Source of the DNA: Escherichia coli | GTDB taxonomy: Bacteria; Pseudomonadota; Gammaproteobacteria; Enterobacterales; Enterobacteriaceae | Assembly (NCBI RefSeq): GCF_003018115.1 | Contig: NZ_CP027457.1 | DNA length: 64,000 nt | Direction: 5' to 3' (one strand) | Part shown: piece by piece, positions 10,721 through 41,362 of the stretch | How the letters are laid out: each line of letters opens with the position of its first letter | Numbering within the stretch: position 1 is the first letter of the stretch | The notes under the pieces: model-generated | Database searches by the model: none | Seen by the model: the letters and a program-made list of their open reading frames with translations, nothing else | What the model was told of the DNA's origin: nothing | Made by a program: the position numbers and the translations under genes

Positions 10721-13700
10721 TTAATCGGTGTTGCTTTTTTCCGCTTTTCCGGCCATTTGTGCCAGGAAGTCATAGCGTTTTTGCAAATCAGCTGCAGCAT
10801 CTTTCCATAACTGTTCTGCCACTTCTGGCTGCTGTGAATTCAGACGACGGAAACGTTGCTCATGAAGTAACGTTTCTTCCAGTGCTTCTGACGGCGGGCG
10901 TGAATCCAAGGCCAGCGGCAGTTTGCCTTCATCGGCACGACGCGGATCAAAGCGATATAGCGGCCAGAAGCCGGTAGCTGTGAGTTGGCGCATCTGGTCG
11001 TGGCTGAGTGCCAGATCGTAACCATGCTCTTCACATGGGCTATAAGCGATGATCAGCGATGGCCCCGGATACGCTTCCGCTTCCTGAATCGCTTTCACCG
11101 TCTGGTTGAGCTGCGCGCCGAGAGAAATCTGCGCCACATAAACATGACCGTACATCATCATACTGACGCCAAGATCTTTACGCGCTTTACGTTTGCCGTG
11201 CTCGCCAAATTTAGTTACTGCACCCAGCGGTGTCGCTTTCGACGCCTGGCCACCGGTGTTGGAATAGCATTGCGTATCCAGCACCAGAATGTTGACGTTT
11301 TCCGTCAAACTCAATACATGATCCAGACCGCCAAAGCCGATATCGTAAGCCCAGCCGTCGCCACCAATCAGCCAGATTGATTTTTCTACCAGTGCATCTG
11401 CGTCACGCAGCAGTTCATGTGCTTCGGCAACATCGTTGAGTTGCTGGCGTAAAGCTGCGACCTGTTCTCGACGAACCTCTGGCGTAGCGTCTGATTTCAA
11501 CGCCGTCAGTAATTCCGCCGGGATTTTATCGGCAAATTGATCCAGCAGACGCAGCACGCGGACACGGTGTTGATCGACCGTCAGGCGGAAACCAAGGCCA
11601 AATTCGGCATTATCTTCAAACAGAGAGTTCGCCCATGCCGGCCCACGACCGTTGGCATCGGTGGTATACGGTGTAGAGGGCAGGTTACCGCCATAAATTG
11701 AAGAACAGCCGGTGGCGTTAGCGATCAACATCCGGTCGCCATAGAGCTGAGTCAGCAATTTAATATACGGCGTCTCGCCACAACCGGAGCAAGCACCTGA
11801 ATATTCAAACAGCGGTGTAATCAGCTGCGATGTACGAATATCAATACGTTCCAGTTTGCTACGGTCGATTTCTGGCAGGTTGAGGAAGAAATCGTAATTG
11901 ATTTTCTCTTCTTCGACATGTTCCAGGCGAGACATCATATTGATGGCTTTAATCTCTGGATTCTGACGATCTTTCGCCGGGCAAACTTCGACGCACAGGT
12001 TACAACCGGTGCAATCTTCCGGTGCCACCTGCAAGACATATTTCTGCCCGCGCATATCACGCGATTTCACATCCAGCGAATGCAGGCTGGCAGGGGCGTT
12101 TTCCATCGCTTCAGGCGGCACCACTTTTGCGCGAATAGCTGAGTGTGGGCAAGCGGCAACGCAGTGGTTACATTGGGTACAGAGTTCCTCTTTCCAGATG
12201 GGGATCTCTTCGGCGATATTGCGTTTTTCCCAGCGCGTAGTGCCCATCGGCCAGGTGCCGTCTGGCGGCAGCGCCGAAACGGGGAGGGCATCACCAAGCC
12301 CGGCGAGCATCGCAGCGGTTACGGTTTTCACAAAATCAGGGGCGGCATCGGAAACCACTGGCGGTCGATTGGCGCTGTACGGATTAACCGGCTGCAACGG
12401 AACTTCTTCTACGGATTCACGCGCCAGCGCCAGAGCCTGCCAGTTGCGCTCCACCAGATCCTGACCTTTGCTACTGTAACTTTTGGCAATCGCACCCTGC
12501 AATTCTGCGAGGGCGCTATCGCCAGGCAGAATTTGCGTCAGATGGAAAAAAGCCATCTGCATGACGGTATTAATACGGGCCGCCAGGCCACATTCGCGGG
12601 CGATTTTCGCTGCGTTAATCACATAGAAGCGCGCTTTTTTCTGGTTTAACACGGCCTGAACTTCTTGCGGCAAGCGCGACCACACTTCATCTGCGCTGTA
12701 CGGCGTGTTGAGCAGGAAAATGCCGCCAGGTTTTAAACGCTCAGCCATCTGATATTTATCGATAAACTGCAACTGGTGGCAGCCAACAAAATCAGCCTGG
12801 GAAATGAGATAAGCGGAACGAATCGGCTGTTCGCTGACGCGAAGGTGAGAAACCGTCAGGCCGCCCGCCTTTTTGGAGTCGTAAACAAAATAGCCCTGTG
12901 CGTACCACGGCGTGGAATTACCGATAATCTTGATATTGTTTTTGGTCGCGGAAACGCTGCCATCACTACCAAGGCCATAAAACAAGGCTTCCAGTTTCGC
13001 CGAGTTTGGCAGGGTGTTTTCCGGCAACGGCAGTGACAGATTGGTCACATCATCGTAAATACCAACCGTAAAGCGCGCTTTCGGTTTAGCCGCGTTGAGC
13101 TCGGCAAATATCGCCAGTACACAGTCCGGGCCAAATTCTTTGGATGAAAGACCATAGCGCCCACCAATGACACGGGGCAGAGTTTCGCGCTCGCCATTAT
13201 TAAAGGCTTCTGCCAGTGCGGTCATTACATCCAGATAGAGCGGTTCTGCCTGGGCACCGGGTTCTTTGGTTCTGTCCAGTACCGCCACGCTGCGTACGGA
13301 TCCCGGCAGAGCTTGCAGCAAGTGTTTGGCGGAGAAGGGACGGTACAGGCGAACTTTCAGCACGCCAACTTTTTCGCCACGGGTTAGCAATTCATCAACC
13401 ACTTCTTCACAGGTGCCAATGGCAGAGCCCATCAGGATAATCACCCGTTCCGCTTGCGGATGCCCGTAATACTCAAACGGCTGATACTGACGACCTGTCG
13501 CGGCAGCGAAATCATTCATCGCCTGTTCAACATGGTCATAGACCGCGTTGTACCATGAGTTGGTGGCTTCGCGAGACTGGAAATAAGTGTCAGGATTGGC
13601 GGACGTACCGCGGATCACCGGATGTTCCGGGTTGAGCGCCCGGGCGCGATGAGCATCAATTTCGGCCTGCGGCATGAGATCAAGAATAGTGTCATCGGCC

Positions 13701-14245
13701 AGCGGGACAATTTTGTTGATTTCGTGGGACGTACGGAAACCATCAAAGAAATGAATAAATGGCACGCGGCTTTTCAGCGTCGCGATGTGCGAAATGAGAG
13801 CAAAGTCTTGCGCTTCCTGGACGTTTGCCGCACACAACATCGCGCAACCCGTCTGGCGCACCGCCATGACGTCGGAATGATCGCCAAAAATAGAGAGTGC
13901 ATGTGTGGCAACGGTACGTGCCGCTACATGCAGGACAAACGGTGTGAGTTCGCCTGCCAGTTTGTACAGCGTCGGGATCATCAGCAGCAAACCCTGCGAT
14001 GACGTAAACGATGTTGAAAGGGCACCCGTCTGCAAAGCGCCATGCACGGTAGCGATAGCACCCGCTTCCGACTGCATTTCAACCACGCGTGGTGTGTCTC
14101 CCCAAACGTTCTTCAAGCCGTTTCCGGCCCAGGCATCAGCCTGTTCTGCCATCGTGGAACTAGGGGTAATAGGGTAGATGGCGATAACTTCACTGGTGCG
14201 AAACGCCACCGAAGCAACCGCGCCATTACCGTCAATAGTAATCAT
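10721..14245 (-). CDS. ydbK: Pyruvate:flavodoxin oxidoreductase (PFOR)
   Basis: 1174-aa ORF; two 4Fe-4S ferredoxin motifs (CTQCNHCVAACP, CTGCNLCVEVCP) and TPP-binding C-terminal domain. Confidence 0.9.
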   Translation of the reverse strand: MITIDGNGAVASVAFRTSEVIAIYPITPSSTMAEQADAWAGNGLKNVWGDTPRVVEMQSEAGAIATVHGALQTGALSTSFTSSQGLLLMIPTLYKLAGELTPFVLHVAARTVATHALSIFGDHSDVMAVRQTGCAMLCAANVQEAQDFALISHIATLKSRVPFIHFFDGFRTSHEINKIVPLADDTILDLMPQAEIDAHRARALNPEHPVIRGTSANPDTYFQSREATNSWYNAVYDHVEQAMNDFAAATGRQYQPFEYYGHPQAERVIILMGSAIGTCEEVVDELLTRGEKVGVLKVRLYRPFSAKHLLQALPGSVRSVAVLDRTKEPGAQAEPLYLDVMTALAEAFNNGERETLPRVIGGRYGLSSKEFGPDCVLAIFAELNAAKPKARFTVGIYDDVTNLSLPLPENTLPNSAKLEALFYGLGSDGSVSATKNNIKIIGNSTPWYAQGYFVYDSKKAGGLTVSHLRVSEQPIRSAYLISQADFVGCHQLQFIDKYQMAERLKPGGIFLLNTPYSADEVWSRLPQEVQAVLNQKKARFYVINAAKIARECGLAARINTVMQMAFFHLTQILPGDSALAELQGAIAKSYSSKGQDLVERNWQALALARESVEEVPLQPVNPYSANRPPVVSDAAPDFVKTVTAAMLAGLGDALPVSALPPDGTWPMGTTRWEKRNIAEEIPIWKEELCTQCNHCVAACPHSAIRAKVVPPEAMENAPASLHSLDVKSRDMRGQKYVLQVAPEDCTGCNLCVEVCPAKDRQNPEIKAINMMSRLEHVEEEKINYDFFLNLPEIDRSKLERIDIRTSQLITPLFEYSGACSGCGETPYIKLLTQLYGDRMLIANATGCSSIYGGNLPSTPYTTDANGRGPAWANSLFEDNAEFGLGFRLTVDQHRVRVLRLLDQFADKIPAELLTALKSDATPEVRREQVAALRQQLNDVAEAHELLRDADALVEKSIWLIGGDGWAYDIGFGGLDHVLSLTENVNILVLDTQCYSNTGGQASKATPLGAVTKFGEHGKRKARKDLGVSMMMYGHVYVAQISLGAQLNQTVKAIQEAEAYPGPSLIIAYSPCEEHGYDLALSHDQMRQLTATGFWPLYRFDPRRADEGKLPLALDSRPPSEALEETLLHEQRFRRLNSQQPEVAEQLWKDAAADLQKRYDFLAQMAGKAEKSNTD

Positions 14246-14518
14246 ATGACACCCTTACATTGCGCAAATGAGGGGCGCACGAAATTGCTGCGCGCCCAGT
14301 AGTAATCCTTCAATTTTAGCAAATGGCTTTCTTCTGCATTTTCGCTTTTGTGTCCCCCACATCAGAGTAATGAATGTTTTGATCAAACAGAGGGCAAAAA
14401 AATAGCCATAAAAAAGTAAAAATGCGGGGCAACGCGCAGGACAGCTCTCGACGCCGCCCTCTGTGCTGCCTATTATTTATGGCGGTGTCGTTTGGCTTGA
14501 AGATTAGAGGAAGAAAAG

Positions 14519-14785
14519 ATGCGAGCAGCGTTTTGGGTAGGGTGTGCCGCTTTATTGTTGTCGGCGTGTAGTAGTGAGCCTGTTCAGCAGGCGACTGCGG
14601 CGCACGTAGCGCCAGGTTTAAAAGCGTCGATGTCCAGTAGTGGAGAAGCAAATTGTGCAATGATCGGCGGTTCGCTTTCTGTTGCCCGTCAACTGGATGG
14701 TACGGCGATTGGGATGTGTGCATTACCCAACGGCAAACGCTGTAGCGAACAGTCACTTGCCGCCGGGAGCTGTGGCAGCTATTAA
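14519..14785 (+). CDS. ydbJ: DUF333 lipoprotein YdbJ
   Basis: 88-aa ORF with lipobox LLSAC after signal peptide. Confidence 0.85.
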   Translation: MRAAFWVGCAALLLSACSSEPVQQATAAHVAPGLKASMSSSGEANCAMIGGSLSVARQLDGTAIGMCALPNGKRCSEQSLAAGSCGSY

Positions 14786-15204
14786 TTCATTAAATCCGCC
14801 AGCTTATAAGTTAATGTCTGTTTCGCGGTCGCCAGCGTTAACTGGTTCGCGGTCAGATCCACTTGTGCACCTTCTTTCAGCATTTCGCTAATGGTGTTAT
14901 CGAGTTCATTAAGCTGCGGGTTAGCGCACATCATACGGGTCATTGCCAGCCCTTTGGCTGTCAGTTCACCATTAGACAGTTTGCCTTCACCGCTAAAGCG
15001 GTTACACATGCTGCCGGAAATCATCATTTTTTCACCAAAGCTGATTTCTGGCGGATTTTTATCGCCGGTCACGGGCTTACCGTTTACGCTTTCCAGCACA
15101 AAGCGATGATGCTGTAGCTGTTCTGGCGTAACAGCAATTTTGTCGTTACTTACACATCCCGCCATCAGCAGGCTTAGCGCAACAAACGCGGCTACTTTCT
15201 TCAT
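14782..15204 (-). CDS. hslJ: Heat-shock lipoprotein HslJ
   Basis: 140-aa form starting MKKVAAFVALSLLMAGC (lipobox); the track ORF has a 4-codon upstream extension. Confidence 0.85.
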   Translation of the reverse strand: MKKVAAFVALSLLMAGCVSNDKIAVTPEQLQHHRFVLESVNGKPVTGDKNPPEISFGEKMMISGSMCNRFSGEGKLSNGELTAKGLAMTRMMCANPQLNELDNTISEMLKEGAQVDLTANQLTLATAKQTLTYKLADLMN

Positions 15205-15314
15205 TGTGGTTCTCAATTACAGTTTCTGACTCAGGACTATTTTAAGAATAGAGAATGAAAGGTCATTGGGGATTATCTGAATCAGCTCCCCTGGATTGCA
15301 GGGGAGCGGCAAGA

Positions 15315-16304
15315 TTAAACCAGTTCGTTCGGGCAGGTTTCACCTTTTTCCAGATTGCTTAAGTTTTGCAGCGTAGTCTGAGAAATACTGGTCAGAGCTT
15401 CTGCTGTCAGGAATGCCTGGTGTCCGGTAAACAGCACGTTGTGGCAGGCAGACAGGCGACGGAATACGTCATCCTGGATCACGTCGTTGGATTTATCTTC
15501 AAAGAACAGATCGCGTTCGTTCTCATACACGTCCATACCCAACGAACCAATTTTCTGATTTTTCAGCGCTTCAATTGCTGCCTGAGAATCAATCAATGCA
15601 CCGCGACTGGTATTGACGATCATCACGCCATTTTTCATCTGATCGAAGGCGGCTTCGTTCAACAGATGGTAGTTTTCCGGTGTCAGCGGGCAGTGCAGAG
15701 AGATAACGTCTGATTCAGAGAACAGGGTTGGCAGATCGACATACTCCACACCGAGTTCCAGCGCCGCTGCACTTGGATACGGATCGAACGCCAGCAGACG
15801 CATACCAAAACCTTTCAGAATGCGCAGCATCGCCACACCGATTTTACCGGTACCGATAACGCCTGCCGTTTTGCCATACATAGTAAAGCCGGTCAGACCT
15901 TCCAGAGAGAAGTTAGCGTCACGGGTACGCTGATACGCGCGGTGAATACGGCGGTTCAGCGTCATCATCATACCGATGGCGTGTTCAGCAACGGCCTCTG
16001 GATCATAGGCTGGAACACGGACTACTTTCAGCCCCAGTTCTTTTGCCGCGTCAAGGTCGACGTTATTGAAACCGGCACAGCGCAGGGCGATATATTTAAC
16101 GCCGTGCTTTTTCAGCTCTTCCAGCACCGGGCGGCTGCCGTCATCGTTTACGAAAATACATACCGCTTCGCAGCCATTGGCAGTTTTAGCGGTTTTTTCC
16201 GTCAGCAGAAAGTCAAAAAATTCCAGCTCAAAGCCAAAGGACTCGTTCACCTGTTGCAGGTACTTCTTGTCGTACTGTTTTGTGCTATAAACGGCGAGTT
16301 TCAT
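15315..16304 (-). CDS. ldhA: Fermentative D-lactate dehydrogenase
   Basis: 329-aa ORF MKLAVYSTKQYDKKYLQQVNESFGFELEFFD...; D-isomer 2-hydroxyacid dehydrogenase NAD-binding GxGxxG (GVIGTGKIG). Confidence 0.9.
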   Translation of the reverse strand: MKLAVYSTKQYDKKYLQQVNESFGFELEFFDFLLTEKTAKTANGCEAVCIFVNDDGSRPVLEELKKHGVKYIALRCAGFNNVDLDAAKELGLKVVRVPAYDPEAVAEHAIGMMMTLNRRIHRAYQRTRDANFSLEGLTGFTMYGKTAGVIGTGKIGVAMLRILKGFGMRLLAFDPYPSAAALELGVEYVDLPTLFSESDVISLHCPLTPENYHLLNEAAFDQMKNGVMIVNTSRGALIDSQAAIEALKNQKIGSLGMDVYENERDLFFEDKSNDVIQDDVFRRLSACHNVLFTGHQAFLTAEALTSISQTTLQNLSNLEKGETCPNELV

Positions 16305-16511
16305 AAGACTTTCTCCAGTGATGTTGAATCACATTTAAGCTACTAAAAATATTTTACAAAATTTCAAATTTAATTGAAAGCTATGGCGATATTGAAAAAT
16401 TCATCAACAACTATGCTTAGTGTAGGCGCAACCTTCAACTGAACGGTTAAACATGCCACAATACCCGTATTGAATGCTTAATTTTTCGCTAAATCAGGAT
16501 ATTAACTACCC

Positions 16512-19151
16512 ATGCTGGGTAAATATAAAGCCGTTCTCGCGCTGTTATTACTGATTATTCTTGTGCCGTTGACGCTGCTGATGACGCTCGGGCTGTGGGT
16601 TCCCACGCTGGCGGGCATCTGGCTACCGCTCGGGACACGTATTGCATTAGATGAAAGCCCACGCATTACGCGTAAAGGTTTAATCATTCCCGATCTCCGT
16701 TATCTGGTGGGAGATTGTCAGCTTGCGCATATCACCAACGCCAGCCTTTCACATCCCAGCCGCTGGTTATTGAACGTCGGCACGGTAGAACTTGATTCTG
16801 CTTGTCTGGCGAAATTGCCGCAGACGGAGCAATCGCCAGCTGCTCCAAAAACCCTCGCGCAGTGGCAGTCCATGCTGCCTAACACCTGGATCAATATCGA
16901 TAAACTGATTTTTTCTCCCTGGCAGGAATGGCAGGGAAAACTCTCTCTCGCATTAACCTCCGATATCCAGCAACTGCGTTATCAGGGCGAAAAAGTTAAA
17001 TTTCAAGGCCAGCTGAAAGGGCAACAACTTACAGTCAGCGAACTGGATGTCGTCGCGTTTGAAAATCAGCCGCCGGTTAAACTGGTGGGGGAATTTACTA
17101 TGCCGCTAGTGCCGGATGGACTTCCTGTAAGTGGGCATGCTACTGCGACGTTAAACTTGCCGCAGGAACCGTCACTGGTGGATGCAGAGCTGGACTGGCA
17201 GGAAAATAGCGGGCAATTGATCGTGCTGGCACGGGATAACGGCGATCCGTTGCTCGATTTGCCGTGGCAAATTACTCGTCAACAATTGACCGTAAGCGAT
17301 GGTCGCTGGAGCTGGCCGTATGCAGGTTTTCCTTTGAGTGGCCGACTGGGTGTCAAAGTCGACAACTGGCAGGCAGGGCTTGAGAACGCTCTGGTCAGCG
17401 GACGACTGAGTGTGCTGACCCAGGGGCAAGCGGGTAAGGGCAACGCGGTGCTTAATTTTGGCCCAGGAAAATTAAGCATGGATAACAGCCAGCTGCCTCT
17501 GCAGCTGACCGGTGAAGCGAAACAGGCGAACCTCATTTTATATGCCCGTTTACCTGCGCAGCTAAGTGGAAGTCTGTCTGACCCAACGCTGACCTTTGAG
17601 CCAGGCGCGTTACTTCGTTCAAAGGGAAGAGTCATCGATTCGCTGGACATCGATGAAATCCGCTGGCCTTTAGCGGGTGTAAAAGTCACCCAACGTGGTG
17701 TTGACGGACGTTTGCAGGCCATTTTGCAGGCGCATGAAAATGAACTGGGCGATTTCGTGCTGCATATGGATGGGCTGGCGAATGATTTTCTCCCTGACGC
17801 TGGCCGCTGGCAGTGGCGCTACTGGGGAAAAGGGAGTTTTACACCGATGAATGCCACCTGGGATGTCGCAGGAAAAGGTGAGTGGCATGACAGCACGATT
17901 ACGCTGACCGATCTCTCCACCGGTTTCGACCAGTTACAATACGGTACGATGACGGTAGAAAAGCCGCGATTAATTCTCGACAAGCCCGTCGTCTGGGTAC
18001 GTGACGCACAGCATCCCTCCTTCAGCGGCGCGCTGTCACTGGACGCCGGGCAAACGCTGTTCACTGGCGGCAGTGTGTTACCGCCATCAACCTTAAAATT
18101 TAGCGTCGATGGGCGCGATCCGACGTATTTCCTCTTTAAAGGCGATTTACATGCTGGTGAGATTGGCCCGGTTCGGGTAAATGGTCGCTGGGACGGTATT
18201 CGTCTGCGCGGTAATGCCTGGTGGCCTAAACAATCACTGACTGTATTCCAGCCGCTGGTGCCACCCGACTGGAAGATGAACTTACGCGATGGTGAACTGT
18301 ATGCTCAGGTTGCATTTTCTGCTGCGCCTGAACAAGGATTCCGCGCGGGAGGGCACGGCGTGTTGAAAGGCGGTAGTGCCTGGATGCCAGATAATCAGGT
18401 GAACGGTGTCGATTTTGTCCTGCCTTTCCGTTTTGCCGATGGAGCCTGGCATCTGGGGACTCGCGGCCCCGTTACGTTGCGAATTGCCGAAGTGATTAAT
18501 CTGGTGACAGCGAAAAATATTACGGCTGATTTGCAAGGGCGTTATCCGTGGACTGAAGAAGAACCCTTGCTGTTGACTGATGTTAGCGTCGATGTGTTAG
18601 GCGGTAACGTGCTGATGAAACAATTACGTATGCCGCAACATGACCCGGCGCTGTTGCGGCTGAATAATCTCTCATCCAGCGAACTGGTTAGCGCCGTCAA
18701 TCCGAAACAATTCGCCATGTCCGGGGCATTTAGTGGTGCATTGCCGTTATGGCTAAACAACGAAAAATGGATAGTGAAAGATGGTTGGCTGGCAAATAGC
18801 GGGCCAATGACCTTGCGGCTGGATAAAGACACCGCAGATGCGGTGGTGAAAGACAATATGACTGCGGGTTCAGCAATTAACTGGTTGCGCTATATGGAAA
18901 TTAGCCGTTCATCGACAAATATTAATTTAGATAATCTCGGTTTATTAACCATGCAGGCCAACATTACAGGTACCAGTCGCGTTGATGGTAAAAGCGGTAC
19001 GGTAAACCTTAATTACCATCATGAAGAGAATATTTTTACGCTGTGGCGCAGTTTACGCTTTGGCGATAATCTCCAGGCATGGTTGGAGCAGAACGCACGT
19101 CTGCCGGGAAATGACTGTCCGCAAGGAAAAGAGTGTGAGGAAAAACAATGA
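16512..19151 (+). CDS. ydbH: AsmA-like inner-membrane-anchored periplasmic protein YdbH
   Basis: 879-aa ORF with N-terminal TM anchor MLGKYKAVLALLLLIILVPLTLLMTL and long beta-rich body. Confidence 0.9.
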   Translation: MLGKYKAVLALLLLIILVPLTLLMTLGLWVPTLAGIWLPLGTRIALDESPRITRKGLIIPDLRYLVGDCQLAHITNASLSHPSRWLLNVGTVELDSACLAKLPQTEQSPAAPKTLAQWQSMLPNTWINIDKLIFSPWQEWQGKLSLALTSDIQQLRYQGEKVKFQGQLKGQQLTVSELDVVAFENQPPVKLVGEFTMPLVPDGLPVSGHATATLNLPQEPSLVDAELDWQENSGQLIVLARDNGDPLLDLPWQITRQQLTVSDGRWSWPYAGFPLSGRLGVKVDNWQAGLENALVSGRLSVLTQGQAGKGNAVLNFGPGKLSMDNSQLPLQLTGEAKQANLILYARLPAQLSGSLSDPTLTFEPGALLRSKGRVIDSLDIDEIRWPLAGVKVTQRGVDGRLQAILQAHENELGDFVLHMDGLANDFLPDAGRWQWRYWGKGSFTPMNATWDVAGKGEWHDSTITLTDLSTGFDQLQYGTMTVEKPRLILDKPVVWVRDAQHPSFSGALSLDAGQTLFTGGSVLPPSTLKFSVDGRDPTYFLFKGDLHAGEIGPVRVNGRWDGIRLRGNAWWPKQSLTVFQPLVPPDWKMNLRDGELYAQVAFSAAPEQGFRAGGHGVLKGGSAWMPDNQVNGVDFVLPFRFADGAWHLGTRGPVTLRIAEVINLVTAKNITADLQGRYPWTEEEPLLLTDVSVDVLGGNVLMKQLRMPQHDPALLRLNNLSSSELVSAVNPKQFAMSGAFSGALPLWLNNEKWIVKDGWLANSGPMTLRLDKDTADAVVKDNMTAGSAINWLRYMEISRSSTNINLDNLGLLTMQANITGTSRVDGKSGTVNLNYHHEENIFTLWRSLRFGDNLQAWLEQNARLPGNDCPQGKECEEKQ

Positions 19152-36999: not shown

Positions 37000-37950
37000 A
37001 TGAGTAAACTTGATACTTTTATCCAACATGCTGTAAACGCTGTTCCGGTCAGTGGCACATCTTTGATCTCCTCTCTGTATGGTGATTCGCTTTCCCATCG
37101 TGGTGGTGAAATCTGGCTGGGTAGTCTGGCGGCTTTGCTGGAAGGGCTGGGATTTGGTGAGCGTTTCGTGCGCACCGCTTTGTTTCGTCTTAATAAAGAA
37201 GGCTGGCTGGATGTTTCCCGCATCGGGCGACGCAGTTTCTATAGCCTCAGTGATAAAGGCTTGCGCCTGACGCGACGGGCAGAAAGTAAAATTTATCGCG
37301 CAGAGCAACCTGCATGGGATGGTAAATGGCTCCTGTTGCTCTCGGAAGGTTTAGATAAAGCGACGCTGGCTGATGTCAAAAAGCAGTTGATCTGGCAAGG
37401 TTTTGGCGCACTGGCACCCAGCCTGATGGCATCGCCGTCGCAAAAACTGGCGGATGTACAGACACTTTTGCATGAAGCGGGTGTGGCGGATAACGTGATT
37501 TGTTTTGAAGCGCAAATACCACTGGCGCTTTCTCGTGCAGCACTGCGTGCCAGAGTGGAAGAGTGCTGGCATTTAACTGAACAAAATGCCATGTACGAAA
37601 CCTTTATTCAGTCATTCCGCCCGCTGATGCCGCTGTTAAAAGAGACGGCAGACGAGTTAACCCCGGAGCGTGCATTTCATATTCAGCTTTTACTGATCCA
37701 TTTTTATCGCCGTGTCGTCCTTAAAGACCCATTGTTGCCGGAGGAGTTGCTTCCGGCTCACTGGGCAGGGCATACGGCGCGTCAGCTGTGTATCAACATT
37801 TATCAGCGCGTAGCGCCTGCTGCTTTAGCGTTCGTTAGTGAAAAAGGTGAAACCTCGGTCGGTGAACTGCCTGCGCCGGGAAGCCTGTATTTTCAACGTT
37901 TTGGCGGCTTGAATATTGAACAGGAGGCGTTATGCCAATTTATCAGATAG
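37000..37950 (+). CDS. paaX: Transcriptional repressor PaaX of the paa operon
   Basis: 316-aa [52 protein letters not shown]... Confidence 0.9.
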
Positions 37951-38522
37951 ACGGTCTGACTCCAGTTGTGCCAGAAGAGAGTTTTGTCCATCCGACAGCG
38001 GTATTGATCGGCGATGTTATTCTCGGCAAGGGCGTTTACGTTGGGCCAAATGCCAGTCTGCGTGGCGATTTTGGTCGTATCGTGGTGAAAGATGGTGCGA
38101 ACATTCAGGATAATTGCGTTATGCACGGTTTTCCCGAGCAGGATACTGTCGTTGAAGAAGATGGACATATTGGTCATAGCGCTATCCTTCACGGCTGCAT
38201 TATCCGCCGCAATGCATTAGTGGGAATGAACGCGGTAGTGATGGACGGTGCGGTGATTGGCGAGAACAGCATTGTTGGCGCATCCACATTTGTGAAAGCC
38301 AAAGCAGAAATGCCTGCTAATTACCTGATTGTAGGCAGCCCGGCGAAAGCGATTCGTGAACTTAGTGAGCAGGAGCAGGCATGGAAAAAGCAGGGTACGC
38401 ATGAGTATCAGGTGCTGGTGACACGCTGTAAGCAGACGTTGCATCAAGTTGAGCCATTGCGGGAAGTTGAATCCGGCAGGAAACGCCTGGTATTTGATGA
38501 GAATCTGCGACCAAAACAGTAA
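37932..38522 (+). CDS. paaY: Hexapeptide-repeat thioesterase PaaY
   Basis: 196-aa left-handed beta-helix (gamma-carbonic-anhydrase-like) protein. Confidence 0.9.
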
Positions 38523-38564
38523 CGTCCAGATACTGAACATTCTAATTTTTAGCATGTGATCCCT

Positions 38565-38600
38565 AAACCGCAACGCTGATACAGGTTGCGGTTTATTATT
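38565..38600 (+). terminator. Intrinsic terminator after paaY
   Basis: AAACCGCAAC-GCTGATACAG-GTTGCGGTTT followed by ATTATT. Confidence 0.6.
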
Positions 38601-38764
38601 GCCGGATGCGGTGCTTGATGCGTCTTTTGCTGCCTAATGTTTTGGTGTCTTTCAGGATAACAGAGCAACTCATCCAGTAATCTTGTTTACGCCTTCGCAT
38701 TATTTATCTCTTTTCGTTTCTATACTGATTTTTCTTAATCCGTTTTATTACAGGGCAGGGTGCG

Positions 38765-39625
38765 ATGAGCAGCAATACATTTACTCTCGGTACTAAATCC
38801 GTTAACCGTCTTGGTTATGGCGCGATGCAACTGGCAGGTCCTGGGGTTTTTGGTCCCCCAAGAGATCGCCACGTCGCTATAACCGTGCTGCGTGAGGCGC
38901 TGGCATTGGGCGTCAATCACATTGATACCAGCGATTTTTATGGTCCGCACGTCACCAATCAGATTATCCGCGAAGCGCTTTATCCTTACTCTGACGACCT
39001 GACAATTGTCACTAAAATTGGTGCGCGGCGTGGAGAGGACGCTTCCTGGTTGCCCGCCTTTTCTTCGGCAGAGCTGCAAAAAGCGGTACACGATAATCTA
39101 CGTAATCTCGGCCTGGACGTACTGGATGTGGTTAACCTGCGCGTGATGATGGGGGATGGTCATGGCCCAGCGGAAGGATCGATTGAAGCCAGCCTGACCG
39201 TGCTGGCAGAGATGCAACAACAAGGCCTGGTAAAACATATTGGCCTGAGCAACGTCACACCGACGCAGGTTGCAGAGGCGCGTAAGATTACCGAAATTGT
39301 CTGTGTGCAAAACGAATACAACATTGCTCATCGTGCTGATGACGCAATGATTGATGCTTTGACCCGCGAAGGTATTGCCTATGTGCCGTTCTTCCCGCTC
39401 GGGGGCTTTACGCCGCTGCAATCCGCCACGCTTTCTGATGTTGCAGCGAGCCTGGGTGCAACACCCATGCAGGTGGCGCTGGCGTGGCTGTTACAACGTT
39501 CACCGAATATTTTGCTGATCCCAGGGACGTCTTCTGTTGCGCATTTACGGGAGAATATGGCTGCTGAAAAATTGCATCTTTCTGAGGATGTGTTGTCTAC
39601 GTTGGATAGTATTTCGCGAGAATAA
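38765..39625 (+). CDS. ydbC: Aldo-keto reductase YdbC
   Basis: 286-aa ORF MSSNTFTLGTKSVNRLGYGAMQLAGPGVFG...; AKR family. Confidence 0.9.
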   Translation: MSSNTFTLGTKSVNRLGYGAMQLAGPGVFGPPRDRHVAITVLREALALGVNHIDTSDFYGPHVTNQIIREALYPYSDDLTIVTKIGARRGEDASWLPAFSSAELQKAVHDNLRNLGLDVLDVVNLRVMMGDGHGPAEGSIEASLTVLAEMQQQGLVKHIGLSNVTPTQVAEARKITEIVCVQNEYNIAHRADDAMIDALTREGIAYVPFFPLGGFTPLQSATLSDVAASLGATPMQVALAWLLQRSPNILLIPGTSSVAHLRENMAAEKLHLSEDVLSTLDSISRE

Positions 39626-39688: not shown

Positions 39689-39790
39689 ATGTTTAAGCCC
39701 AGGATTTGCAGCTGGATAGGTTTACTTCTCCTGTTTATGCTGAGTACTTCCAGTACAGGCGGAACTTCGATGTGTTGCAAATGCAGTTGA
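39689..39790 (+). pseudogene. Truncated signal-peptide-bearing ORF fragment (33 codons), probable remnant of a secreted protein gene (ydbD-like?)
   Basis: GGAG SD then ATG; MFKPRICSWIGLLLLFMLSTSSTGGTSMCCKCS stop; protein-like coding continues downstream in two other frames. Confidence 0.4.
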
Positions 39791-39901
39791 TATTGAACCA
39801 TTTTTTTCTGCGGCTACCGCTGAAGATAAACAACAAGTTGAACAAGCTATCAACAGTAGCGTGAATCTTGTCCCTTCGGTTTATCTGCATCGGACTGGAA
39901 A

Positions 39902-41362
39902 GTGCATCGTGGCGATTTAGTGGTAGAAGGTAATATAGAGAGTAATCAAAAATTGATTGTTCTTGGCAATTTGACAGTCAAAGGTAATATTTCCACTTTC
40001 TCTCTTTCTAATCCATGGGTTATTCTCGGTAACGTGACGGCAACGAATATAGTTACGGATTCACCACTGTTAATTACCGGTTCGATAAATGCAAGTGGAC
40101 TGGTATTTATCGACTCATATTACGATAATCCGTCTACGATTAAGGGGAGTATTAATGCGCGTGGGATATTTATCAATGACATAATTGCACCTGTTGTTGC
40201 GTCTTCGACAAATAGTGAATTCATGGTCCGTGCGAGTGACAAAAATGACACTGAAAATGTCAAAAAAGCGCTGATGATAATAAATCCTGATGCATATTAT
40301 TGGGGTCTAATTAATGATGAAGATGCTCTGAAAGAAATTTTTAAGCGAAGCAATATTCGCATGGCAGGGAATGTCTGTAATCAGATGAAAAAAGAAGCGC
40401 TGTTTCGCCCTAAGCCTTCTCCTGAGTTAGTGCAGGAATTGCAAATGCTGGATGAAGGCAACGTTGCTGCATTTGAAGGACGAGATATTGCGACATTTGA
40501 TCTTGCCATAATGCGAACTCTCCCAAGGCTTAAAGGAATTTCAGCTAACCTACGCAAACAACTTATTGTTACATTACGTATTCGTACCTGGTGGGGTATC
40601 GTCATTTGTTTTTCACTGGTGATTTCAGGTCCACGCTGGATGACGTTGACGTTTTTTGCGCTGATAAGTTTTCTGGCATTGAAAGAATATTGTACGCTTA
40701 TATCCGTACATTTTCCGCGTTGGTTATATTTGGTTATTCCTCTTAACTATTTGCTTATCGGTTTTAATTGCTTTGAGCTGTTTCTGTTATTTATACCTTT
40801 GACTGGGTTTCTGATATTAGCCACCTGGCGAGTTTTTGTGGGTGATCCCTCCGGTTTTCTGCATATCGTGAGCGCCATTTTTTGGGGCTGGATAATGACC
40901 GTTTTCGCCTTGAGTCATACCGCCTGGCTATTAATGTTGCCAACCATAAATATCCAGGGCGGGGCGTTACTGGTGTTATTTCTTTTGGCGTTAACCGGGT
41001 CAAACAATATTGCACAGTATTTATGGGGGAAATCCTGCGGCAGAAGAAAAGTGGTCCCCAAAGTCAGCCCGGGAAAAACGCTGGAAGGTCTGGTGGGGGG
41101 CGTCATCACCACCATGATTGCGTCACTGATTATTGGGCCGTTGCTGACACCGCTAAATACATTACAGGCATTATTAGCGGGTTTGTTAATTGGTATTAGT
41201 GGTTTTTGCGGCGATGTAGTGATGTCAGCCATCAAACGAGATATTGGTGTTAAAGATAGTGGAAAACTATTACCAGGACATGGCGGACTCCTTGACAGGA
41301 TTGACTCATTAATTTTCACCGCTACGGTATTTTTTTATTTTATTCGCTACTGCTGTTACTGA
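39902..41362 (+). CDS. ynbB: 486-aa protein: N-terminal beta-helical repeat domain fused to a CdsA-family (phosphatidate cytidylyltransferase-like) membrane domain; C-terminal part corresponds to YnbB
   Basis: C-terminal ~285 aa multi-TM with CdsA signature KVSPGKTLEGLVGG...LLPGHGGLLDRIDSL; N-terminal ~100 aa of G/N-punctuated beta-strand repeats (LIVLGNLTVKGNIS, ILGNVTATNIV, ITGSINASGLVFI, KGSINARGIFIN). Confidence 0.7.
   Translation: MHRGDLVVEGNIESNQKLIVLGNLTVKGNISTFSLSNPWVILGNVTATNIVTDSPLLITGSINASGLVFIDSYYDNPSTIKGSINARGIFINDIIAPVVASSTNSEFMVRASDKNDTENVKKALMIINPDAYYWGLINDEDALKEIFKRSNIRMAGNVCNQMKKEALFRPKPSPELVQELQMLDEGNVAAFEGRDIATFDLAIMRTLPRLKGISANLRKQLIVTLRIRTWWGIVICFSLVISGPRWMTLTFFALISFLALKEYCTLISVHFPRWLYLVIPLNYLLIGFNCFELFLLFIPLTGFLILATWRVFVGDPSGFLHIVSAIFWGWIMTVFALSHTAWLLMLPTINIQGGALLVLFLLALTGSNNIAQYLWGKSCGRRKVVPKVSPGKTLEGLVGGVITTMIASLIIGPLLTPLNTLQALLAGLLIGISGFCGDVVMSAIKRDIGVKDSGKLLPGHGGLLDRIDSLIFTATVFFYFIRYCCY

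Follow-up and report, generated by a model that had tools for sequence, protein, structure and literature searches.

The paaY-pdxI interval

The stretch of Escherichia coli DNA analyzed here (64 kb; referred to as the window) brings the end of the phenylacetate degradation cluster directly next to pdxI, formerly ydbC. paaX (37000-37950), which scores above the cut-off of the NCBIfam PaaX equivalog model, is followed by paaY (37932-38522, plus strand), the final gene of the cluster. paaY is intact, encodes 196 amino acids and reaches 372.7 bits against the TIGR02287 PaaY equivalog in a profile search (cut-off, 319.6; E=3e-112), and RefSeq genomes give the name paaY to the gene under this match. 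pdxI (38765-39625, plus strand) is also intact; its 286-amino-acid product is a pyridoxine 4-dehydrogenase of the aldo-keto reductase type that scores 553 bits against NF007695 (PRK10376 oxidoreductase), and it is named pdxI in RefSeq. The ORF positions place the spacer between the two genes at 38523-38764 and its length at 242 bp, exactly as a preliminary description of this DNA had it, while the K-12 counterpart is 9,159 bp. In K-12 MG1655, the order is paaY, ynbG, a ydbA pseudogene that IS2D and IS30C break into three fragments, and pdxI (b1400-b1406), in agreement with the statement in the preliminary description that IS2 and IS30 interrupt K-12 ydbA between paaY and ydbC. Its central observation, that paaY is here followed directly by ydbC with neither ydbA nor an IS element in between, was borne out by the ORFs and by blastn and tblastn searches of the window. 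These searches found no ydbA-like or IS sequence within the 242-bp spacer, and the queries used (K-12 ydbA, the paaY-ydbA intergenic region and Pseudocitrobacter YdbA) gave no ydbA match across the 64 kb. A 118-amino-acid minus-strand ORF (38217-38573) lies nearly wholly antisense to paaY, with its end in the spacer, and was considered fortuitous.

The gene that is missing from the window can be characterized from other genomes. In silico excision of the IS elements turns K-12 ydbA into an uninterrupted ORF of 2,020 codons (6,063 nt), and because this IS-free frame is intact, ydbA was a real gene. Its homologues carry the C-terminal autotransporter beta-domain PF03797 (70.6 bits; cut-off, 26; 2e-19) as well as BigA_N and BigA_beta (PF25784 and PF25783), both above cut-off; NF033178 (auto_BigA) matches them partially, under its exception-level cut-off. 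Judged on these homologues outside the window, the absent gene is a genuine type Va autotransporter of the BigA/YdbA family. E. coli alleles range in length from 5.9 to 8.9 kb and in identity from 100% to about 77% (in the beta-barrel region). The length of 8 to 9 kb first suggested for intact ydbA therefore suits JJ1886 (8,517 nt) and A21 (8,898 nt) but is too long for LF82 (7,581 nt) and for the IS-free K-12 frame. In strain 5270 (L090 1992-3457), an IS3-family element lies near the 5' end of ydbA, at a position unlike those of IS2 and IS30 in K-12, and in LR-50 (H126) an IS1 lies within the beta-domain; ydbA appears to have been inactivated repeatedly by independent IS insertions. In RefSeq, several ydbA homologues of 8 to 9 kb (H36, H81, H88, H91, H156, H160, H163 and H164; for example, L094 1-2774) are labeled "EntS/YbdA MFS transporter", which is evidently a propagated confusion of the names YdbA and YbdA. 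Other RefSeq names for the gene are "pectate lyase-fold domain-containing protein", "beta strand repeat-containing protein" and "hypothetical protein".

The window departs from other genomes at further places. The Rac prophage had been described as absent, leaving the window shorter than K-12 there, and the K-12 alignment agrees: positions 1-8464 match K-12 up to ttcA, positions 8422-18461 match from the right end of Rac, and the 43-bp overlap (8422-8464) is the unoccupied attachment site. Downstream of pdxI, window positions 39689-41362 show a clean deletion of 2,305 bp relative to O157:H7 (L003 14033-16337), with the junction at about 40567/40568, by which ydbD loses its 3' two thirds, ynbA disappears entirely and ynbB is shortened by its first 100 nt or so. 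What is left is a ydbD'-'ynbB fusion ORF (39902-41362; 486 amino acids), annotated likewise in F9792, and the 5' part of ydbD includes a frameshifted stretch with several stops at about codons 20 to 60. After Rac and ydbA, this is the third place where the window is shorter than K-12. In JJ1886 (L093 7230-8741) and A21 (L094 2991-4234), azoR comes directly after pdxI and ydbD-ynbABCD is missing; in LF82 (L092 7229-8993), ydbD alone is missing. By these comparisons, the interval from pdxI to azoR appears as variable as that from paa to ydbA.

Anatomy of the junction

The blastn alignment to K-12 on the paaY side stops at ...CAGTAAC, that is, at the paaY stop codon TAA plus one C (38520-38523, plus strand), which we designate the left breakpoint. 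From this point K-12 continues with AGATGTAAAATT into paaY's own terminator, which is missing in the window. On the other side, collinearity with the ydbA-pdxI interval of all ydbA-bearing genomes starts at 38536. The first 10 nt of this collinear stretch (38536-38545, plus strand; AACATTCTAA) read A ACA TTC TAA, or ..T-F-stop, and represent the last 10 nt of ydbA with its stop codon, which are AACGTTCTAA in K-12, O157, LF82, JJ1886, A21 and strain 5270. All ydbA alleles compared end in ..KKTF*, and their tails are nearly identical. The 12 nt between the two points (38524-38535, plus strand) read GTCCAGATACTG in the window and GTCCTGATGCTG in a second type of ydbA-less genome (B-type), to be compared with GGCGTGATGCTG (codons G-V-M-L) in ydbA. 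The intact tail reads GGCGTGATGCTG, then AACTTCAAGAA, then AACGTTCTAA; the 11 nt of AACTTCAAGAA are lost immediately to the right of the 12-nt remnant. We aligned the spacers of eight ydbA-less sequences (the window, F9792 and six more) with four ydbA-bearing 3' ends, and both breakpoints were identical in 8/8 of the former, all of which share the 11-nt loss.

The assignment of the 12 nt to ydbA comes from the B-type sequence. The B-type 12-mer and the ydbA tail agree at 10/12 positions, TGATGCTG being an exact match (p about 0.002; 0.17% of random 12-mers reach 10/12 within the stretch from 60 to 10 nt before the end of ydbA). The window's own 12-mer, of the A-type, agrees at 8/12 (p about 0.11) and was assigned as a ydbA remnant because it is homologous to the B-type 12-mer. 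Among the alleles compared, we found no divergent ydbA allele with a tail closer to the scar than that of K-12. Read in this way, the junction would retain about 22 nt of the 3' end of ydbA. Later changes, consisting of three substitutions (alternatively, a 3-nt insertion) and the 11-nt loss, have blurred the original breakpoint. In K-12 coordinates the missing segment measures 8,918 bp, or 6,359 bp without IS2D, IS30C and their target duplications. The preliminary description had called this a clean allele, a term that no longer fits a spacer with the final 10 nt of ydbA and a degraded 12-nt piece of its tail; the check for ydbA remnants that it proposed for the interval turned up this 3'-end remnant, which favors deletion over ancestral absence.

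The aligned junctions fall into two types that differ at 4/22 scar positions. A-type scars (TAAC GTCCAGATACTG AACATTCTAA) occur in the window, F9792, 1919D62, 2012EL-2448 and EC10, and B-type scars (TAAC GTCCTGATGCTG GACGTTCTAA) in PCN033, CH4793 and no107 (L084, L087 and L088). As a rough estimate from the identity ranks of evenly spaced rows, verified on six genomes, the A-type makes up about four fifths of scars. The B-type junction forms a perfect 7-bp inverted repeat, AACGTCC-TGATGCT-GGACGTT (AACGTCC-N7-GGACGTT), with a chance probability of about 0.2 to 0.5%. In the window, the A-type junction (38520-38545) forms an imperfect 9-bp version with a 3-nt loop, which a terminator scan listed on the minus strand. 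The B-type inverted repeat may reflect a templated mutation at a quasi-palindrome.

Shortly 3' of the ydbA stop codon lies an intrinsic-terminator-like hairpin with a T-rich tail (38564-38600, plus strand; stem AAACCGCAAC/GTTGCGGTTT), recognized by its fold and its position. RNA folding gives the hairpin proper (38564-38595) an 11-bp main stem with a free energy of -19.8 kcal/mol (z=-3.0), followed by TTATT. With a G+C-rich stem-loop, a U-tract and a location downstream of a stop codon, it agrees with what is expected of a rho-independent terminator, and we predict that it acts as one. The T tract reads TTTATTATT in the window versus TTTTTTTATT in most genomes, so that the U-tract of the predicted terminator would be slightly weaker here. 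The consensus scan did not list this hairpin, whose loop exceeds the 8 nt that the scan allows; its output comprised the minus-strand hairpin of the junction and, within the REP sequence described below, a weak hairpin. The hairpin had previously been called the paaY terminator, an assignment that does not survive comparison, since the same hairpin stands at an equal distance 3' of the ydbA stop in every ydbA-bearing genome, K-12 and O157 included. paaY's own terminator hairpin (AAAGCAGAG...CTCTGCTTTATTTATT) is present in K-12 and Pseudocitrobacter and absent from the window. The comparison identifies the hairpin as the terminator of ydbA, not of paaY; it would now be the first terminator 3' of paaY, and paaY's own terminator and ynbG were probably removed together with the deleted segment.

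The remainder of the spacer consists of a repeat remnant and the region upstream of pdxI. REP sequences are imperfect palindromes of about 35 nt of the GCCGGATGCG...CTTATCCGGCCTAC type that occur outside genes in inverted pairs, known as BIMEs. A REP-like motif had been noticed in the spacer, and it is indeed present: GCCGGATGCGGTG at 38601-38613 is a good match that opens the first unit (about 38601-38638) of a decayed pair spanning 38601-38677, with the 3' half of this unit and its inverted partner (about 38653-38677) degraded. Column by column, the region aligns with an inverted REP pair that is still intact in a divergent Escherichia representative (L005) and in Pseudocitrobacter (L006), and the repeat would best be called a decayed BIME. 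A conserved block (38713-38764, plus strand) precedes pdxI; it contains TATACT (38722-38727) and a purine-rich stretch ahead of the ATG. Even E. albertii is 94% identical over the 50 nt that lead up to the ATG, and TTTCTATACTG is kept in Pseudocitrobacter. Presumably this block holds the predicted promoter and 5' untranslated region of pdxI, untouched by the deletion. A consensus scan for sigma-70 promoters gave no match in 38400-38900. An Rfam search of 38300-38950 at E<=1 was likewise empty, which indicates no known sRNA or riboswitch in the spacer.

Frequency and origin of the ydbA-less allele

The scar junction is present in 2,041 of 5,426 complete E. coli genomes (38%). This count was made with a 143-nt query centered on the junction, at least 80% of which had to match in one place, and the match was a single piece in every row listed; eight junctions were read base by base, and the other 2,030 or so are inferred from coverage of the query. 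Every ydbA-bearing genome matches the query only from position 74, which corresponds to window position 38536. An independent count of genomes with paaY and pdxI in one place gave 2,034. By megablast, the ydbA beta-domain is detectable in 2,538 genomes (2,540 places; at most two per genome), once each in all but two, a number compatible with mutual exclusivity between the domain and the 2,041 scars. The allele is not unusual, given this frequency and the variable ydbA carriage already on record in the part of a published survey that concerns this region (PMC4951805).

The spacer in the window is a variant of this common allele. A 12-nt segment 3' of the terminator (about 38625-38637) is present in the window and in O157-type spacers and absent from K-12-type spacers and from the other ydbA-less genomes sampled. 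Three genomes of the 33F4 type (33F4, 32F4 and 33E) match the full 242 nt and probably carry the 12-nt segment too; no complete genome matched the full 242 bp at more than about 92%. Because of the O157-type segment and the lack of a full match above about 92%, we regard the window spacer as a mosaic variant. The segment from paaY to pdxI (37932-39625) is 95 to 98% identical to other E. coli genomes, mostly 95 to 96%, with F9792 the best at 97.8%, and divergence among E. coli pdxI alleles reaches about 7%. A cryptic Escherichia clade was suspected from the 95 to 96% identity and was ruled out by the flanks, which are 98.5 to 99.4% identical to many ordinary E. coli strains over 22.5 kb downstream (closest, O169:H41 strains and F9792) and 99.0 to 99.1% identical to K-12. 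The paaY-pdxI segment is a mosaic, fast-diverging spot, with nothing to suggest a new kind of element.

We conclude, with a probability of roughly 90%, that the 242-bp spacer is the scar of one old deletion of ydbA. The ancestral order would have been paaY with its own terminator, ynbG, the ydbA promoter region, ydbA, the ydbA terminator, the REP pair and pdxI. We infer that recombination fused the nucleotide following the paaY stop codon with a site about 33 nt short of the 3' end of ydbA, removing about 6.4 kb relative to an IS-free K-12-type allele. With little or no homology between the breakpoints (TAA or a single C at most), the event resembles illegitimate recombination. The 11-nt loss and several substitutions would then have degraded the leftover ydbA tail, and the allele would have risen to its present share of about 38% of complete genomes while splitting into at least two haplotypes. 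As a consequence, paaY transcripts would now meet the former ydbA terminator, the region upstream of pdxI would be unchanged, and the cell would be without the ydbA surface adhesin.

The order inferred for the ancestor is found outside E. coli. Pseudocitrobacter faecalis has paaX, paaY, ydbA (1,982 amino acids) and pdxI in the same order, with a uniform DNA identity of 76 to 81% over all four genes and a ydbA match that reaches the last base of the gene, and in the divergent Escherichia representative L005, ydbA is the gene immediately 5' of pdxI. These outgroups came from a search of contigs with PdxI, in which the matches listed were mostly distant aldo-keto reductases (from Rhizobiales, Burkholderia and others); among them, L004 to L007 were informative, two of these (Pseudocitrobacter L006 and Escherichia L005) as outgroups. 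E. albertii has neither paa nor ydbA, and its ydbL adjoins pdxI; because the cluster and the gene are absent together, it is uninformative on polarity. No mobile-element signature flanks ydbA. Since the alleles range from 100% to about 77% identity and vary in length, ydbA appears to have resided at this site for a long time.

A broader proposal goes beyond the single deletion: presence and absence of ydbA could be an old, selectively maintained adhesin polymorphism, with the scar reshaped by quasi-palindrome templated mutation. The null allele at about 38%, the two or more scar haplotypes and the co-occurrence of ydbA alleles with identities down to about 77% hint in this direction, as does the apparent recombination of the scar spacer with ydbA-bearing haplotypes. 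If it were true, loss of ydbA would be favored under immune or phage pressure and retention favored for colonization. We consider this unlikely.

Among the accounts that compete with a single deletion, the most serious holds that the junction of paaY and pdxI is original and that ydbA was inserted in other lineages. It can draw on E. albertii, which lacks ydbA upstream of pdxI, on the very common ydbA-less state and on the variable DNA that flanks ydbA in a region known to be heterogeneous. An ancestral spacer, however, would hardly contain the final codons and stop of ydbA, T-F-stop, the aromatic C-terminal end of all alleles, with the ydbA terminator directly after them, nor would it lack the paaY terminator that K-12 and the outgroup have in common. 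In Pseudocitrobacter, ydbA stands between paaY and pdxI with a divergence uniform with that of the flanking genes, the gene shows no flanking mobile-element signature, and the allele of E. albertii, from which the whole paa cluster is gone, is a different and larger structural one. Deletion rather than ancestral absence is thus the reading supported by these comparisons, and we regard ancestral absence as very unlikely.

Marginally less likely still is a site-specific deletion that arises again and again, for example by way of a hairpin or quasi-palindrome. In its favor, the junction is a quasi-palindrome, with the perfect 7-bp inverted repeat of the B-type (p about 0.002 to 0.005), and the allele is found in strains of widely different sources and pathotypes. 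But a hypothetical scar without the later changes would lack the palindrome (longest arm, 3 bp), which makes the palindrome a property of the product and not of the substrate; between the breakpoints of ydbA-bearing genomes there is no repeat long enough to drive recurrence; and the 11-nt loss and shared substitutions in 8/8 sampled scars are not reproducible by repeated events. An assembly collapse or mis-join that removed ydbA is scarcely credible: the internal passenger repeats of the gene (repeated matches within fragment 1) can confuse assemblers, but the identical junction recurs in 2,041 complete, mostly long-read-closed genomes, and the breakpoints lie outside the repeats, one of them outside ydbA altogether.

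Significance and comparison with known systems

With the single deletion as the preferred reading, the preliminary description is partly supported as a whole, its observation being confirmed. The ydbA-null allele is common, its existence was already known at the level of gene content, and the feature is well explained; the absence of ydbA here would reflect a derived deletion allele that is common across the species, not a peculiarity of one lineage. The main value lies in correct annotation, with little beyond. The terminator now serving paaY would be one inherited from ydbA, next to an untouched pdxI upstream region. With the 22-nt scar as a marker, ydbA-null haplotypes can conveniently be typed at base resolution and assigned to the A or B variant, and for pan-genome studies of adhesins, the IS-disrupted ydbA of K-12 is only one of several inactive states.

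The deletion may also bear on an intragenic sigma-54 site reported within K-12 paaY (TTGGCATGGAAAAAGCA), in sense orientation and 464 nt upstream of ydbA (PMC4591121, site IS16). The corresponding sequence in the window (38376-38392) is CAGGCATGGAAAAAGCA, in which the T of the -24 TGGCA element is lost; F9792 has CGGGCATGG, and most of the remaining ydbA-less genomes retain an intact site. Should the site once have driven ydbA, no scar genome has kept that target.

The giant autotransporters BigA of Salmonella and YdbA of E. coli represent the family of the missing gene. Intact homologues from E. coli and Pseudocitrobacter carry all three domains, whereas the window retains no recognizable coding sequence beyond the final two codons and the stop. 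The region from ydbL to ynbC, comprising the paa cluster through ydbA and beyond, has been described as heterogeneous in E. coli (Sci Rep 2016, PMC4951805); among genomes of phylogroup A, about 42% carry a full-length ydbA (PMC4951805). The sections of that study that deal with this region report gene presence and absence, and the base-level junction, the retained ydbA tail and the polarity of the event do not figure in them (PMC4951805). K-12 MG1655 has the same flanking genes in the same order and orientation and is collinear with the window from 38536 onward (ydbA terminator, REP remnant and pdxI upstream region) at 92% identity; it keeps the whole ydbA frame, inactivated only by the two IS elements, together with ynbG and the paaY terminator, whereas the window is without all of these. 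Other ydbA-less E. coli genomes are the closest counterparts. Those sampled are without the 12-nt segment that the window carries 3' of the terminator, and they (F9792, 1919D62, 2012EL-2448, EC10, UMNK88 and ECC-1470, along with the B-type PCN033, CH4793 and no107) share with it identical breakpoints and the same 11-nt loss.
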